A stretch of 46,736 nt of DNA from Escherichia phage BEK6: sequence record MN158208.1; one strand, written 5' to 3'. Each line of letters begins with the position of its first letter. Within the stretch, counting starts at the first letter, position 1. Both the position numbers and the translations under genes were made by a program. Shown here piece by piece: positions 6,636 to 46,704 of this stretch. Below the pieces are notes generated by a model. The model was not told where the DNA came from. It did no database searches and saw only the letters and a program-made list of their open reading frames with translations.

Positions 6636-6661
6636 CGAATTATGGGTGACTAACTTATCTG

Positions 6662-6689
6662 TTGATTTGCGGTCGCCCTACTGTATAAT
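6662..6689 (+). promoter_or_regulatory. candidate sigma70-type promoter for the major capsid gene
   Basis: TTGATT (6662-6667), 16-bp spacer, TATAAT (6684-6689). Confidence 0.45.
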
Positions 6690-6727
6690 AAGCTCGTAGA
6701 CACCTAACTGAAAAGGAACAATAAAGA

Positions 6728-7669
6728 ATGGCCATTAAATTTGACGCAGAACAAGCAAAAATCACTGCTCACCTCGAGCAAATGGGCGTAGATAAAGCAG
6801 ATGCCGCTGGTATCTGGACTGTTAGCCAGCTTACCGCTGCTCTGAAACGTGCTTACGAAAAAGAATACGCAGAAAACTCAGTTGTTAATATCTTCCCTGT
6901 AACAAATGAAATTCCTGGTCACGCGAAGTATTTCGAATACCCAGAATTTGATGGTGCTGGCATTGCTCAGATTATCGCTGATTACTCTGACGACCTTCCG
7001 CTGGTTGACGCTTTCATGACTGAGAAACAAGGTAAAGTGTTTCGTTTTGGTAACGCATTCCTGATTTCTATTGATGAAATTAAAGCAGGTGCCGCAACTG
7101 GTCAGCCTCTGTCGACTCGCAAGCAAGCCCTGGCTTTCGAAGCGCACGATAACCTGCTGGATAAACTGGTTTGGTCTGGCTCCACCCCGCACGGTATCCC
7201 TAGCGTATTCAACCATCCGAACATCAACAACGTTGTTGCTGGTACTTGGAACTCAGCAGCTGCTGCCATGACTGACATCACCGCGCTTATTGATGCAATC
7301 GAGACTTCGACCAATGGAACTCACACCGCAACTGATATCTTGCTGCCTGCTTCCGCTCGCCGCCTGATGCAAGAGCTGGTTCCTAACACCTCTATCAGTT
7401 ACGCGCAGTTGTTTGCTACCAACAACTCGGGCATCAATCTGCGTTATCTTCAGTTCCTGGATAACTACGACGGCGCAGGCGGCAAGGCTGCTCTGGCGTT
7501 TGAAAAGAATCCACTCAATATGTCTATCGAGATTCCGGAAGCTACCAACGTTCTTCCAGGACAACCTAAGGACTTGCACTTTAAGTACCCTGTAACATCA
7601 AAAGCTACAGGTTTGATCGTTTATCGTCCACTGACGATGGCTGTAATGAAAGGTATCAAATTCTCGTGA
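6728..7669 (+). CDS. major capsid protein (putative)
   Basis: 313-aa ORF with upstream TTGATT-16-TATAAT promoter and strong terminator 7676-7698; position and size typical of a major capsid protein. Confidence 0.6.
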   Translation: MAIKFDAEQAKITAHLEQMGVDKADAAGIWTVSQLTAALKRAYEKEYAENSVVNIFPVTNEIPGHAKYFEYPEFDGAGIAQIIADYSDDLPLVDAFMTEKQGKVFRFGNAFLISIDEIKAGAATGQPLSTRKQALAFEAHDNLLDKLVWSGSTPHGIPSVFNHPNINNVVAGTWNSAAAAMTDITALIDAIETSTNGTHTATDILLPASARRLMQELVPNTSISYAQLFATNNSGINLRYLQFLDNYDGAGGKAALAFEKNPLNMSIEIPEATNVLPGQPKDLHFKYPVTSKATGLIVYRPLTMAVMKGIKFS

Positions 7670-20806: not shown

Positions 20807-20836
20807 AACAAAAGCCCCGAAAGGGGCTTTATATTT
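20805..20836. terminator. bidirectional terminator between convergent J-like and 314-aa genes
   Basis: GCCCC-gaaa-GGGGC flanked by an A-run upstream and T-rich sequence downstream. Confidence 0.6.
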
Positions 20837-21779
20837 AATACATATCAGGAAGGTAAGGAAGTGGCGTTGATATTGTTACGTCAGGCCTATTTCCTATCTC
20901 GTATCTGACAATCCTTGAGCCCGTGCCAGATCTAACATACCCGTTGCTCATTACAATTCCTTTGTTTCTCAACTCCTTATATGCTCGTATTGCCCTTGTG
21001 TTAAATCCACATCTGAGTATTGGGAAGTAGGATTCGCCAATGTATTGATTGCTACCTGATAGGTTTATGAATCCAGAAACAACCAATGGCCTTGTTAAAG
21101 TTGAAAGCGTGCAAATCCCATTAGAGTTAAATATGTTCAAGCCTGGGCCCGGAGTTGGAGCGACCATCTGGAAGATAATCAAATCCATAGTGACGCTTCC
21201 TGGTGTATCACCAGTATCTTCAGTATTTATGTTTGTACATATCAGTTGGTTGCTACCGTTGTATTCAACTGAAACGCCTGGGTTGCTCCACTTTCCAAAT
21301 GGTATACCATAAATTGGCAGTGTGTATGTGTTGGTGAAAGATATTCTCTGAGCAAACTTGCATACTAATAGCCTGTCAGTGGTGGTTATAGAAGTAAAGT
21401 CAGTACTGTCAGCAACGTAAATACCCTGGCCTGTAGATGCTCTTAGTACCTCAACAACAGTACCAGAAAATTGAGTTATACGGTCAGAATATCCATTCTC
21501 ATAGCCAATCGATATTGTTCCGCTTGATGCCGTTGATGAGAATCCATTTATGTAGTAAATCTCAACGCCCCTATCAAGTTCGAATGAGTATGCGCCATTG
21601 TTAGGGATAAGGAATCTTGACGCTCCCTCATTGCCCTGAATTGGAAAAGTCTTGCTAAACCCACCGCTAGAAACGTTGAAATTGCCAGCGAAATTCAATG
21701 CCCGCATCCCTGCGGTTATTGTCATTGGCTTCCTTCCGTCATTTAGGTCTATATAAATACCCTGAGCCATTAATTCCAC
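20835..21779 (-). CDS. hypothetical protein, candidate receptor-binding / tail-associated protein
   Basis: 314-aa Gly/Ser/Thr/Asn-rich ORF, GGAG RBS, co-oriented with and overlapping the upstream lipoprotein gene; function inferred by analogy with RBP-lipoprotein pairs. Confidence 0.4.
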
Positions 21780-26404: not shown

Positions 26405-28912
26405 TCATGCTCCGTAAGCAACGGAGCCATCTGCTTTTAACCATGAAGTTCCGTTGTACCACACAGGAATCCCAAGGTTGGTATCGAAAGTTGTGAAACC
26501 TACAGGCTGAAAAGCCCTTTTGGCTTTGATTTCGGCAGTTGTTCCATAGCTGTACTCTTTAAGCCTATGCGAAACCAAGTCAGAATTCCTGTTCCATAAG
26601 ATTTCATGCTCTTCAATCTTACCCCCAGAAGTTATTGAGTTAACCTGGTAGATACACCTAATCGTAGACATAGCACCAGAGTAATAATGTCCAAAAATAG
26701 AAATGAATCCAGTATCGTCCTGTATTTCATTTAACCACGGTTGAAAAACAGATCGAATATCACCCGTTGCTTCTGAAAGTGATAGCCTGAACTCAAAATC
26801 ACTCTTAACATTGTTTGATACACACCATGCGTTTACTGCATTAAAGGCTTCCAGTACCGTCATGGAAGGCTTCACATTTGAAAAGTAAAGGTACTTTGCA
26901 ATCTCAGAGCTACTATTAACAATGACATTGGAATCCTGAATGGTGCTGCTGAAATTCTTTACAGGAAAAAGAGATGCATTAACAACATTTAAAGCCCTTG
27001 TTAATGGATATGAAAGTCTTTCCAGCGTGTTTGTGTAATGATTTCCGGTTGTCGCGTCTACTATCCCAGCCCTGTATTTTATAAGATTAGGGTCCCATAT
27101 GGTTAAGTCAAAAAAGCAACCATCCATAAAACCAATGCCGTTTGATATCTTCACAACCTTTTGCATCATTGCGTGTGGTTGTGACTTGAGTCTGACTCTT
27201 ATGTCACCAATTCCACCTGCCACATTTCCACCAGACTTCGGCAAGCTATTGTCAACAAAATGATTCGTACTAAGCCACGCAACAAGATTCAAGTCCATTG
27301 ATGAAATAAAGTTTAACTTATTTGATCCAACGCTGATTGCGTGAGCGTTAGTAAAACCAGTTGACGAAACATCTATATCATTCCATATCAATACCTCTTG
27401 ATCTTTTGAGTTGCAGTCAATTGAGAATCCATAACCCTCATCATTAACTGGTGATGCTGCGGCCTCTTGCTTGATGGCTCCTTGCTTGTTGAATACGTAG
27501 AAATTACCAAAGAATGTTCGCTGGCTAAGTCTAGAGAAGTTTTGCGGCCCAGTATAGTAATTAGAACCCCTTAAAGTAAGAGCTACGCGCGAGTAACCGC
27601 CACCAGGTATGTCAACCTCAATTCTCATTCCATTAGCATTAAAGTTTGCTATAGGGTTTTTAAAGACAAATCCGTCAATGTCAGTTTTTATTAAAAAAAC
27701 AACATCTTCCGAAATGCTTACTTCCTTTAAACGTCCAATATCAATAGTCTTCGTACTAGAAATTAGATAAACACCAGATTTTACAACAAACCTGCCATCT
27801 GAAATCATAGCGTCAAAGCTAGAATCTACTGGCGTAGCTCCGGTATTATCTGCTCCGTAAGAAACTAAATCACCAATGAACCTTGATGTTGATTCCTCTT
27901 TTGAGTAAACATCAAGATTAGTTCTTGCTGCGGCTTTATCTTTAACGTCAGAGAAATTCAATGATTTTTGAAAAGTCTCATTTTTTGAATAAACATCAAG
28001 CAACCCCCTAACCCTTAAAGCAGAAGCTCCACCAGTAGCACCATCTCCACCAGGAACGCTTAGAAGTTCCCTTACATAAAAATTCCTAGAACCAGTAGCT
28101 CCAGTAAAGGTAATTTCCGCAACCCTAAAAGCTGCGTTTGAGGTTGTAGAAGGAGAAATTCTTACTACGTTACTTCCATTAATACCACTCGTTGCAAGAA
28201 CATCAATACAAATGGTGGTGTTTGTCGCCGGGAACATTGAACTTAAGTCTGCCGGAATGTTAACCATGTTGTCAATTCTGCACTGGTAACTACCACCTGA
28301 ATAAAATTGCATTGTCTGCCAATCAAGAGATGTTAAAAGTGGTGTTGTAGTACTTCCTATACCGTGTTCTGCAAAGTAAGCCACTGCGGCGGTATTCCCG
28401 GCTGCATTTATTACGGCAACGGTTCTCTTGTATGAGTTCTGTGCATTATTGCTAGCACCAACGGCAGTAGCGGCGCTCTCTGCGGCAGCAATCTGGCTAG
28501 CAAGAGCCTCAGCAGCTCCAGTGGTGGATTGTTTTGCAAGTTTCTCGAAGCGAGGCCAGTCGAAAGTGTCTTGACCAATAAATTGCAGCAATCCTTCGAT
28601 GGATGTCTCCTTTGACTGGTAGTATCGTAAAGTCTCCGCAACATCCTGAGCCAAACCCTGAACGGTAATACCATCGTGAGCAAGAATCGCATAACCCGTA
28701 CCGGCCGGAACTGTTTCAGAATTAGGATTGTAAACATTAATCTGCGTATCACTGATGATTTCAGAGATGGTGTAAATTTTTAGTGGGTTAGTTTTAAAAA
28801 TGATAGTGGCACCAACCCTGATCAGTGTAAGAGGTGCTTTCCATACTGTCCCCGCGCCAGTTACCTCGCCATTTGCGGCCAGCGAGGCGGTTCCTAAGTC
28901 ATAAATTGCCAT
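26405..28912 (-). CDS. putative tail fiber / tailspike-like protein
   Basis: 835-aa ORF rich in Gly/Ser/Thr/Asn; GC-richer 5' portion and AT-rich central/3' portion; GGAGA RBS; palindrome copy in the 5' leader. Confidence 0.5.
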   Translation of the reverse strand: MAIYDLGTASLAANGEVTGAGTVWKAPLTLIRVGATIIFKTNPLKIYTISEIISDTQINVYNPNSETVPAGTGYAILAHDGITVQGLAQDVAETLRYYQSKETSIEGLLQFIGQDTFDWPRFEKLAKQSTTGAAEALASQIAAAESAATAVGASNNAQNSYKRTVAVINAAGNTAAVAYFAEHGIGSTTTPLLTSLDWQTMQFYSGGSYQCRIDNMVNIPADLSSMFPATNTTICIDVLATSGINGSNVVRISPSTTSNAAFRVAEITFTGATGSRNFYVRELLSVPGGDGATGGASALRVRGLLDVYSKNETFQKSLNFSDVKDKAAARTNLDVYSKEESTSRFIGDLVSYGADNTGATPVDSSFDAMISDGRFVVKSGVYLISSTKTIDIGRLKEVSISEDVVFLIKTDIDGFVFKNPIANFNANGMRIEVDIPGGGYSRVALTLRGSNYYTGPQNFSRLSQRTFFGNFYVFNKQGAIKQEAAASPVNDEGYGFSIDCNSKDQEVLIWNDIDVSSTGFTNAHAISVGSNKLNFISSMDLNLVAWLSTNHFVDNSLPKSGGNVAGGIGDIRVRLKSQPHAMMQKVVKISNGIGFMDGCFFDLTIWDPNLIKYRAGIVDATTGNHYTNTLERLSYPLTRALNVVNASLFPVKNFSSTIQDSNVIVNSSSEIAKYLYFSNVKPSMTVLEAFNAVNAWCVSNNVKSDFEFRLSLSEATGDIRSVFQPWLNEIQDDTGFISIFGHYYSGAMSTIRCIYQVNSITSGGKIEEHEILWNRNSDLVSHRLKEYSYGTTAEIKAKRAFQPVGFTTFDTNLGIPVWYNGTSWLKADGSVAYGA

Positions 28913-46028: not shown

Positions 46029-46057
46029 TTGCATCACTGAACGGAATTATCTAACAT
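46029..46057 (+). promoter_or_regulatory. candidate sigma70-type promoter upstream of the tRNA region
   Basis: TTGCAT (46029-46034), 17-bp spacer, TAACAT (46052-46057). Confidence 0.3.
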
Positions 46058-46223
46058 TAACCACGTAGACAAACGAGGCCACCAAGTGGCAACGGCGCAC
46101 GGAGCGCAACTACTAAGTCCGTTGCTAATTAAGTAGCGTATGCGGCATTAAGACCTAGCGCAAATAGGCAGATTAACCGGCTGTATCAGGCAGCCCCGGA
46201 GCCGTAACCGGGACTCATTCAAA

Positions 46224-46301
46224 GCTCTGTTAGCTCAATTGGATAGCAGCAACGACCTTCTAAGTCGTAGGTTACTGGTTCGAATCCAGTGCGGAGCGCC
46301 A
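46224..46301 (+). tRNA. tRNA-Arg (anticodon UCU), with encoded 3' CCA
   Basis: Hand-folded cloverleaf: acceptor GCTCTGT/GCGGAGC, anticodon stem ACGAC/GTCGT with loop CTTCTAA (anticodon TCT), T-arm ACTGG-TTCGAAT-CCAGT, discriminator G then CCA; resembles enterobacterial argU-type tRNA. Confidence 0.75.
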
Positions 46302-46308
46302 AATCAAA

Positions 46309-46410
46309 CGTCGCGTTGCTAATGCTGGCCAAAGGGTGGAGCTTATACCTCCATAAAGCAATCTCCAGATAAGAGATGTAACGCAGGTTCGATTCCTGCC
46401 GCGACGACCA
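46309..46410 (+). ncRNA. tRNA-like element (non-canonical length; possibly a class II tRNA or degenerate tRNA)
   Basis: Perfect 7-bp acceptor pairing CGTCGCG/CGCGACG, canonical T-arm GCAGG-TTCGATT-CCTGC, discriminator A and CCA, D-loop-like GGCCAAAGGG, but ~99 nt with two candidate anticodon hairpins. Confidence 0.3.
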
Positions 46411-46425
46411 AAAAAGGAGTTCATT

Positions 46426-46608
46426 ATGTGGGATGTGAAGTTGTCCATTCGCTTAATGGGCCGCTCGTGCAAGAATTGCACTCAAGATTATATCGCGTCA
46501 GTTGCCGCAATCAGCGCTGAGGATGCGGTAGAGAAAGTAAAAGAGATGTCAGGCGCTGACCCTGATACTCACAAATTCCTCGTCTGCTACGTTCGCAAGC
46601 AAGACTGA
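46426..46608 (+). CDS. hypothetical protein
   Basis: 60-aa ORF with AAAAAGGAG RBS, followed by strong terminator 46670-46694. Confidence 0.45.
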   Translation: MWDVKLSIRLMGRSCKNCTQDYIASVAAISAEDAVEKVKEMSGADPDTHKFLVCYVRKQD

Positions 46609-46669: not shown

Positions 46670-46694
46670 AGCCCTCGCTTGAGGGCTTTTTTTC
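46670..46694 (+). terminator. rho-independent terminator
   Basis: AGCCCTC-gctt-GAGGGCT followed by TTTTTTT. Confidence 0.65.
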
Positions 46695-46704
46695 GTCTGC
46701 AATA

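Follow-up and report, generated by a model that had tools for sequence, protein, structure and literature searches.

We analyzed a stretch of 46,736 nucleotides (nt) from Escherichia phage BEK6 (MN158208.1; the whole stretch is referred to here as the window), in which a tRNA-Arg(UCU) gene is followed by a 102-base, tRNA-Ile-like gene with two anticodon-type hairpins, referred to here as the two-headed tRNA. Our data indicate that the two-headed tRNA consists of two tandem modules, each made of a D-stem 3' strand, nucleotide N26, and an anticodon-type hairpin, on a shared acceptor stem, 5' D-strand, and T arm. Since these three parts serve both modules, two mutually exclusive class-I cloverleaves can be drawn, one displaying the anticodon UAU and the other GAU. 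It can most simply be described as a tRNA-Ile in which the module (D-stem 3' strand, N26, and anticodon arm) is duplicated in tandem. Furthermore, we found that a widespread family of phage tRNAs uses UAU and pairs it with a second, GAU-bearing anticodon-type arm. We hypothesized that the UAU arm reads AUA codons and that the GAU arm provides isoleucine identity, a proposal to which we give about an even chance and which is weighed below against its alternatives.

The second tRNA gene has two anticodon-type hairpins

The two-headed tRNA (Table 1) has the hallmarks of a tRNA, including an acceptor stem of 7 base pairs (bp), a T stem of 5 bp closed by a UUCRANY loop, a D-loop containing GG, a discriminator base, and CCA. 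A first-pass annotation of this DNA had listed the acceptor, the T arm, A73, CCA, and two hairpins with their loops, and all of these are present in the sequence. The single anticodon arm of a standard tRNA (7-nt loop, U33, and a purine at position 37) is replaced by two arms. The loop of hairpin 1 fits an anticodon loop (C32 U33 U34 A35 U36 A37 C38). The loop of hairpin 2, CAGAUAA, is identical to the loop of Escherichia coli tRNA-Ile(GAU), CUGAUAA, save for an A at position 33 (the E. coli gene sequence was checked).

As the first-pass annotation had allowed, the element can take a tRNA fold: the Rfam tRNA model (RF00005) scores 46309-46407 at 39.3 bits against a gathering threshold of 29. 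The copy in Vibrio phage River4 scores 40.7 bits and that in Vibrio phage WD615 falls below the threshold. ARAGORN does not call a tRNA at 46309-46410. The Rfam alignment uses AAGG as the 3' strand of the D-stem, which makes hairpin 1 the anticodon arm and leaves a 29-nt "variable region" behind it. The earlier descriptions of the element, "class II-like" and "tRNA with an insertion", were each half right; the element is better described as two overlapping class-I cloverleaves (UAU and GAU).

Several known classes of tRNA were considered and rejected. The variable arm of a class II tRNA starts right after positions 44-45, and no more than 3 nt (positions 46-48, Sprinzl numbering) separate it from the T stem. 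The junctions of our element do not fit a true class II tRNA, since its 3' linker is 5 nt long (GUAAC) and its 5' linker 7 nt, with a family mode of 5-6 nt for the 3' linker. A class II isotype (Leu, Ser, bacterial Tyr, or Sec) does not agree with two loops that carry the Ile anticodons UAU and GAU. The lysidine type, tRNA-Ile2, needs CAU for TilS; all family members have UAU, and therefore TilS and lysidine cannot be involved. Allo-tRNAs require a 12-bp acceptor branch of the 8/4 or 9/3 type and all members have 7/5. Lastly, an intron (in bacteria, a group I intron in the anticodon loop) was rejected because the extra module (approximately 24 nt) lies outside an anticodon loop, no intron family was matched, and no known bacterial mechanism applies.

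Covariation supports both hairpins and identifies the conserved D-stem

We aligned 42 distinct sequences of the window type (referred to here as type 1). In this alignment, 92-95% of the cells are paired, compared to approximately 65% in shuffles and approximately 40-50% with slid partners, and double changes occur in 23 of the 26 pairs. The acceptor is paired in 100% of cells with double changes in all seven pairs, and the T stem is likewise 100% paired. All five pairs covary in both the stem of hairpin 1 (91% paired) and that of hairpin 2 (99.5% paired). Both 7-nt loops are invariant or almost so. All family members have NUUAUAN as the loop of hairpin 1, even those from sets that had not been selected on it, and in 75 type-1 sequences the hairpin 2 loop is CAGAUAA (47), UAGAUAA (27), or AAGAUAA (1). 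The pair C29-G41 occurs in hairpin 2 of 30 of the 42 sequences and in hairpin 1 of none.

The partner of the 5' D-strand was determined with 75 distinct type-1 sequences, whose variants came from scans without constraint on the D-stem positions. We found that the distal strand, located after hairpin 1, pairs at 10-25', 11-24', and 12-23' in 100% of these sequences. Pair 10-25' is G-C in 73 sequences, U-A in one, and C-G in one, while 12-23' is U-A in 73 and C-G in two. At 13-22', every nucleotide 13 other than A has a Watson-Crick partner (C-G in four sequences, G-C in three, and U-A in one). For the proximal strand, located before hairpin 1, pairing amounts to 100% at 11-24, 88% at 12-23, 44% at 13-22, and 13% at 10-25. 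Since the D-stem pairs GCU(A) with AAGC after hairpin 1, hairpin 2 is topologically in the position of the anticodon arm; the conserved D-stem is the one that places it there. The resulting cloverleaf is of class I and contains, in order, the D-stem, A26', a 5-bp stem with a 7-nt loop (hairpin 2), the 5-nt GUAAC, and the T arm, and hairpin 1 leaves the D-loop just before the conserved A21. RNAfold and RNAalifold proposed a mini-hairpin D-arm (GCUA-AUGC-UGGC), which was rejected because natural variants at positions 10 and 13 (contigs L231, L377, L070, and L405) break it and the distal pairing survives them.

Two alternative cloverleaves

The proximal strand is also constrained, with an A-G core that is almost invariant. 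Three lineages have a change in the 5' strand that is accompanied by matching changes in the proximal and the distal strand (GCCA with AGGG and AGGC; GCUC with GAGC and GAGC; GCUU with AGGC and AAGC). In a GC-rich clade, mostly from Xanthomonadales, the two strands are identical in sequence. Both D-stem partner strands thus appear to be under selection.

Nearest-neighbour energies differ between the two folds by -0.09 +/- 1.5 kcal/mol over 79 sequences; the window itself has values of -25.7 and -26.8 kcal/mol. Given a family mean difference near 0, thermodynamics is uninformative for choosing between the folds. ARAGORN misses 66 of the 79 full-length members. After in silico deletion of the linker and hairpin 2, it calls tRNA-Ile(tat) in 78 of the 79, and after deletion of the proximal strand and hairpin 1, it calls tRNA-Ile(gat) in 78 of the 79. 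At natural loci ARAGORN reports "gat" for some members and "tat" for another.

UAU and GAU are coupled across long-arm tRNAs

Two scans covered long-arm tRNAs beyond type 1. Scan A combined CTTATA, a long spacer, and a T loop, leaving the second hairpin unconstrained, and yielded 40 parsed genes. Scan B combined CAGATAA and a T loop, leaving hairpin 1 unconstrained. Scan A showed that long-arm tRNA(UAU) genes have several types of D-arm, the window type being one of them. Across these types, the loop of the second hairpin contains GAU in 38 of the 40 genes, and a 39th has GAU in a hairpin that was not picked by our script. The loops found include CAGAUAA, UAGAUAA, CAGAUUA, UAGAUGU, CUGAUUA, CUGAUAU, and UAGAUCA. 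In 33 of the 40 genes the linker between the second hairpin and the T stem is 5-6 nt long, a class-I variable-loop length rather than a class II junction. Conversely, every genuine two-hairpin tRNA from scan B has NUUAUAN in its first hairpin. Taken together, these results indicate that UAU and GAU are coupled both ways.

We also considered whether hairpin 2 acts as a mimic of the AUA codon or as a kissing partner of hairpin 1 (UUAU/AUAA). Both ideas fit type 1 only and were rejected; since the other types have GAUU, GAUG, or GAUC, what the types have in common is GAU. Viral contigs also frequently contain class-I tRNA(UAU) genes that lack an extra arm. The second arm therefore characterizes a subset, and the known hosts of this subset are proteobacteria.

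No single-headed tRNA-Ile with a type-1 D-arm was found in IMG/VR. The only tRNA there with such a D-arm is an unrelated class-I tRNA-Cys(GCA) (L531 12765-12845), whose D-arm UUGCUAAUGUUGGGUAUAGG matches the proximal D-arm of the two-headed tRNA, including the G10.G25 mismatch. In addition, approximately 20 viral contigs share a conserved stretch of approximately 110 nt (...GGAACAATCTGCTTAAGAGGTCC...GGACAGATAATCTCTTGGTGGTTCGATTCCATTGGTTGC...) with a T-arm-like hairpin, in which no acceptor stem was found (L180 at approximately 6640-6750, L181, L183, L186, L198, L199, L215, L233, L238, L243, L250, and L252-L256). Neither L180 nor L215 matched an Rfam family at the gathering threshold.

Table 1. 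Features of the two-headed tRNA gene and its surroundings (window coordinates).
Feature	Position	Strand	Remarks
Two-headed tRNA-Ile-like gene, 102 bases	46309..46410	+	A73 at 46407, CCA at 46408-46410; Rfam 39.3 bits; family covariation
Acceptor stem, 5' strand	46309..46315	+	Pairs with 46400-46406; CGUCGCG/CGCGACG, perfect 7 bp
D-stem 5' strand GCUA (positions 10-13)	46318..46321	+	Pairs with the distal strand
Proximal candidate D-stem 3' strand AAGG	46332..46335	+	Strand used by the Rfam alignment; partial pairing
Hairpin 1, UGGAG-CUUAUAC-CUCCA	46337..46353	+	Loop 46342-46348; anticodon UAU for codon AUA
Distal D-stem 3' strand AAGC (22'-25')	46356..46359	+	A21' at 46355, A26' at 46360
Hairpin 2, AUCUC-CAGAUAA-GAGAU	46361..46377	+	Loop 46366-46372; stem has C29-G41
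Linker GUAAC, 5 nt, hairpin 2 to T stem	46378..46382	+	Class-I variable-loop length
T arm, GCAGG-UUCGAUU-CCUGC	46383..46399	+	100% paired in the family
tRNA-Arg, anticodon UCU (reads AGA)	46224..46301	+	G73, encoded CCA; ARAGORN; Rfam 53.6 bits; annotated tRNA-Arg in relatives
Candidate promoter TTGCAT-N17-TAACAT	46029..46057	+	Proposed by the first-pass annotation; weak
Non-coding leader upstream of tRNA-Arg	46058..46223	+	No + strand open reading frame
Small open reading frame, 60 amino acids, conserved hypothetical protein	46426..46608	+	Open reading frame list; annotated hypothetical in relatives
Intrinsic-terminator-like hairpin and T run	46670..46695	+	Terminator scan; annotated terminator in EC3a

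The two-headed tRNA is present in unrelated phages

A BLASTN search with the 108-nt element alone showed that phages from seven or more unrelated groups contain the same element of approximately 100 nt, with identities of 73-99%. Identity is 97-99% in close relatives of the window phage and 73-92% in phages that otherwise share nothing with the window genome. The distant carriers are Rogunavirinae and Nouzillyvirus (Drexlerviridae), Vibrio phage River4/Pylo (Demerecviridae), Klebsiella phage KP13-26 (Stephanstirmvirinae), Vibrio phage 12VC501 (Schitoviridae), Pectobacterium phage PhiM1 (Autographiviridae), Arno162/Wc4 (Ounavirinae), Vibrio phage WD615, and the 309-kb Xanthomonas jumbo phage Xoo-sp13. 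Within large phages, the element is located inside tRNA arrays. Pattern scans found window-type elements in 43 IMG/VR contigs and in at least 120 metagenome contigs, and a further 24 matches, mostly from Xanthomonadales, were found among one genome for each of 100,044 species. Neither similar DNA nor a host copy of the two-headed tRNA was found in 5,426 complete E. coli genomes. In total, we collected 182 distinct family sequences; A73 is invariant among them and ACCA is encoded in 166.

Cellular copies were observed in Stenotrophomonas, Xanthomonas, Lysobacter, Luteimonas, and Stagnimonas (contigs L387-L410), and in these the proximal and the distal D-strand are both fully complementary to the 5' strand.

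An alignment of relatives of the window phage revealed a clean insertion or deletion of approximately 106 nt between two CCAA ends, and the element therefore behaves as a cassette. Genes for HNH/homing-type endonucleases are located within approximately 1.1 kb of the two-headed tRNA in WD615 (L011 1102-1461), PhiM1 (L012 4-462), and ETEP102 (L009 2672-3099), and these neighbours may relate to cassette mobility.

The element is annotated as tRNA-Ile in PCEc3, 12VC501, WD615, and PhiM1 and is unannotated in most records. The papers on PhiM1 contain a bare mention of "a single tRNA-Ile". There is thus an annotation gap: most members escape ARAGORN, and the gene lacks an annotation in many deposited phage genomes.

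The neighbouring tRNA-Arg and codon demand

The first-pass annotation also described a canonical tRNA-Arg(UCU) with an encoded CCA upstream of the two-headed tRNA. Both predictors that were run, ARAGORN and Rfam (RF00005), find a tRNA at this site, and it is the only tRNA called by ARAGORN in the whole window. The phage gene is approximately 80-82% identical to an E. coli tRNA-Arg gene that was found in 5425 of 5426 genomes. In Klebsiella phage Opt-79, the tRNA-Arg ahead of the two-headed tRNA has the anticodon CCU (AGG) rather than UCU (L008 1418-1493).

We calculated that AGA accounts for 11.0 per 1000 codons in the phage (22% of Arg codons) and AUA for 10.1 per 1000 (14% of Ile codons; 136 AUA codons), and both values are well above those of E. 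coli; the phage thus has a demand that an AUA-reading tRNA would meet. The open reading frames at 20835-21770 and 26405-28912 are among those rich in AUA. Usage of AGG is also heavy, at 8.2 per 1000 codons.

A possible division of identity and decoding between the two arms

Reading of AUA in bacteria needs lysidine (TilS) or a specially adapted isoleucyl-tRNA synthetase (IleRS) and is a classic problem of the genetic code. The Ile identity set comprises A73, the anticodon (G34/L34-A35-U36), t6A37, A38, U12-A23, C29-G41, and C4-G69 (PMC9976931). The kcat/Km of E. coli IleRS is 360-fold lower for the UAU version of tRNA-Ile2 than for the LAU version (PMC3575796), and IleRS is reported to discriminate mainly by nucleotide 34 (PMC11685878). 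Since IleRS charges UAU 360-fold worse, a UAU tRNA in E. coli has an identity problem, which a GAU arm located in the position of the anticodon arm would solve. The type-1 sequences agree with the identity set in part: A73 and U12-A23 are conserved, GAUAA and, in most sequences, C29-G41 are present but on hairpin 2, and C4-G69 is not conserved.

We propose that hairpin 1 (UAU) would decode AUA on the ribosome. Hairpin 2 would not primarily be a decoder and may mimic the anticodon arm of the major tRNA-Ile (G34 A35 U36 A37 A38, C29-G41), such that hairpin 2, A73, and U12-A23 together would give Ile identity for the host IleRS. Given how poorly E. coli IleRS charges a plain UAU tRNA, identity and decoding would be split between the arms, with the GAU arm recruiting IleRS and the UAU arm decoding. 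In type 1, the two D-stem partners might exchange, possibly as a switch between folds. Such a tRNA would let the phage read AUA independently of both lysidine (TilS) and an adapted synthetase, and it would be portable between hosts. The features of the sequence are consistent with a translational-supplement cassette, in which a tRNA-Arg(UCU) for AGA would be followed by a functional, architecturally novel tRNA-Ile for AUA whose GAU arm would give IleRS identity; we judge this as likely to be right as wrong. In a more specific form, the gene might encode a natural bistable tRNA whose GAU head is read by IleRS in one cloverleaf and whose UAU head reads AUA in the other, bypassing lysidine and synthetase adaptation as a portable cassette that spreads among unrelated phages. 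We hold this form tentatively, as a minor possibility.

Several observations weigh against a division of labour between the arms. A UAU anticodon misreads AUG on E. coli ribosomes (PMC3575796). The determinant C4-G69 is not conserved in the 42 aligned sequences. The ordinary tRNA-Ile(GAU) of River4 (L004 1232-1307; MT448617.1 78424-78499) has C33 in its loop, CCGAUAA, where U33 is nearly universal; a loop without U33 is therefore no proof that hairpin 2 cannot decode, and A33 is weakened as a mark of a non-decoding arm. The duplicated D-strand is found only in type 1, and the other types have a hairpin 2 stem of 3-4 bp and no evident alternative cloverleaf. In these members it is hard to picture how IleRS would gain access to the predicted short second arm. 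Close relatives of the window phage, such as SU57 and many vB_EcoS-* isolates, have the tRNA-Arg only and do without the element. Lastly, since arm-less class-I tRNA(UAU) genes are common, the GAU arm is not universally required.

Alternative explanations

The two-headed tRNA could be a plain AUA-reading tRNA-Ile(UAU) whose long arm has a structural or other role (folding, stability, a modification or processing signal, or nuclease evasion) and none in recognition by IleRS, which would either charge the tRNA adequately or find U34 modified. This would agree with the Rfam alignment of the element as class II-like with the anticodon UAU, with the tRNA-Ile annotation in several records, with the over-use of AUA by the phage, and with the arm-less class-I tRNA(UAU) in many viral contigs. 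We nevertheless consider it unlikely because it leaves three results unexplained: the presence of GAU in 38-39 of 40 unselected cases over unrelated D-arm types, the 5-6-nt linker in place of a class II junction, and the covarying second D-stem partner that puts hairpin 2 in the position of the anticodon arm.

A second possibility is that the molecule alternates between folds to decode with both heads, UAU reading AUA and GAU reading AUC and AUU, so that one gene would serve all three Ile codons. Two complete cloverleaves with near-equal predicted energies invite this idea, some types have U33 in the hairpin 2 loop (CUGAUUA and CUGAUAU), and the C33 of the River4 tRNA-Ile(GAU) suggests that loops without U33 may still decode. 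However, all 75 type-1 sequences have A33 in hairpin 2, a position at which decoders keep U. An ordinary tRNA-Ile(GAU) adjoins the two-headed element in River4 and WD615; the element is therefore not needed there for AUC and AUU, and yet these phages keep it. AUC and AUU are also not limiting in the host. We regard decoding by both heads as improbable.

No better placed is the idea that the molecule acts outside of translation as a tRNA mimic, either as a decoy or sponge that binds a host factor specific for tRNA-Ile anticodon loops (for example, an anticodon nuclease, a regulator, or a toxin that attacks Ile-tRNA) or by titrating IleRS. Phage tRNAs do counter tRNA-targeting defences, the element displays two Ile-type anticodon loops on one scaffold, and ARAGORN rejects the full-length molecule as a tRNA. 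Against this idea, the acceptor, A73, the encoded CCA, and a canonical T arm and loop are kept strictly, as charging and EF-Tu binding require, and the element sits in ordinary tRNA arrays. We know of no Ile-specific defence nuclease.

Charging by a synthetase that is blind to the anticodon, namely the leucyl-, seryl-, or tyrosyl-tRNA synthetase (LeuRS, SerRS, or TyrRS), would make AUA recoded or mistranslated. There are precedents, as the nev-tRNA-Ile(UAU) of nematodes is charged with Leu (PMC3333845 and PMC4300185) and allo-tRNAs often carry UAU (PMC7609411). A73 is, in addition, the discriminator of tRNA-Leu. We consider mischarging very improbable, since the acceptor/T branch is 7/5 rather than 8/4 or 9/3, the extra arm lacks class II junctions, the conservation of GAU would be unexplained, and reading AUA as Leu or Ser at 136 phage codons would probably be harmful.

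That the element is a pseudogene or a chance tRNA-like sequence, in line with the first-pass suggestion of a decaying tRNA and with its being missed by ARAGORN and absent from close relatives, can be dismissed with near certainty given 182 distinct family sequences, the extent of pairing, compensatory changes in every helix, invariant loops, and its conservation across unrelated phage families.

Comparison with known tRNAs

The AUA reader tRNA-Ile2 (CAU modified to lysidine; E. coli ileX/ileY and ileZ of Stx phages) resembles the two-headed tRNA in its presumed reading of AUA as Ile and in A73, and its phage copies often accompany a tRNA-Arg(UCU) that reads AGA, as is the case in the window. 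However, tRNA-Ile2 is an ordinary class-I tRNA of 76-77 nt with a single anticodon arm and CAU, and our element has UAU and two arms. The tRNA-Ile(UAU) of bacteria without TilS (Mycoplasma mobile, some lactic acid bacteria, and Bifidobacterium) shares an unmodified-type UAU for AUA (PMC3575796). This tRNA is of class I and relies on a UAU-adapted IleRS (Arg865 in M. mobile), whereas the two-headed tRNA would meet an E. coli-type IleRS and has an extra GAU arm on the tRNA itself.

Class II tRNAs (Leu, Ser, Tyr, and Sec) likewise have an extra helix between the anticodon and T arms, which is read by SerRS and TyrRS. They differ from the two-headed tRNA, whose extra hairpin has a 7-nt anticodon-like loop, linkers of 5-7 nt on both sides, and an Ile isotype. 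Furthermore, the type-1 D-stem closes after hairpin 1, which makes the "extra arm" topologically the anticodon arm. The nev-tRNAs (including those with UAU) and the allo-tRNAs combine a long arm with a UAU that is foreign to class II isotypes, yet they owe their Leu or Ser identity to a class II, 8/4, or 9/3 body, unlike our element with its 7/5 body, A73, and GAU-bearing arm.

Hairpin 2 resembles E. coli tRNA-Ile1(GAU) in its loop (CAGAUAA compared to CUGAUAA), in C29-G41, and in C31-G39. Once hairpin 1 is deleted, the element is colinear with this tRNA (78 nt compared to 77 nt) and is called tRNA-Ile(gat). The differences are A33 in place of U33 and a module of approximately 25 nt with a second anticodon-type hairpin in the D-loop, and identity amounts to 44 of 77 positions. 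Two competing secondary structures of one tRNA are also found in human mitochondrial tRNA-Lys, which needs m1A9 for its cloverleaf. In known tRNAs with alternative folds one fold is inactive, whereas both folds of the two-headed tRNA are complete cloverleaves.

A review counts UAU among the anticodons that are essentially absent from bacteria and phages (PMC8007984). In the searchable full-text literature, outside of which lie subscription-only papers, we found no description of a two-arm tRNA with a second, GAU-bearing arm, and the only annotation encountered was "tRNA-Ile". Within this literature, the two-arm, two-cloverleaf architecture is unprecedented. If the second arm is indeed a synthetase handle, this would be the first natural tRNA whose synthetase-read anticodon differs from the one read by the ribosome, and the ability of phages to bring AUA decoding to many hosts would be explained. 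The gene would also offer a ready-made scaffold for codon reassignment, with an identity arm separate from a decoding arm that can be changed freely.

Flanking features

Over its final 800 bases, the window is similar to T1-like coliphages (Drexlerviridae); the best match, at 93% identity, is vB_EcoS_CEB_EC3a (EC3a; Guelphvirus). Directly downstream of the corresponding region, these relatives contain the gene for the small terminase.

The promoter that had been proposed upstream of the tRNA-Arg did not hold up well. It matches seven of the 12 consensus positions and was not reported by our consensus promoter scan; what speaks for it is sequence conservation, as the stretch is kept in EC3a, PCEc3, and SU57. 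The leader of approximately 165 nt that follows had been described as containing several hairpins and no open reading frame (ORF). Our ORF list agrees on the second point for the + strand. For structure beyond conservation we found no support, as the leader gave no Rfam match even at E<5 and its folding energy is ordinary (z = -1.3 for the minimum free energy). A small RNA or riboswitch was rejected on the same two grounds. One leader hairpin, GCCAC-CAA-GUGGC (46078-46096), is CCAUC-CAA-GAUGG in SU57, a compensatory change, and the motif CCGUAACCGG just 5' of the tRNA-Arg is unchanged in three Drexlerviridae lineages.

The small ORF behind the two-headed tRNA encodes a CxxC motif, starts 16 nt past the CCA, and has a ribosome-binding site (AAGGAG) within this spacer. 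It is kept in all relatives, with or without the second tRNA. The terminator-like hairpin itself spans 46670-46687, after the small ORF, and together with its T run would close the unit formed by the tRNAs and this ORF.

Among the related records, the host labels of two look doubtful. Record PP134917.1, "Pseudomonas phage PsgS01F", equals Escherichia phage PCEc3 in length (44,679 bp) and yields the same match to the window, and record MG065688.1, "Campylobacter phage A110b", is a relative of the T1-like coliphages.

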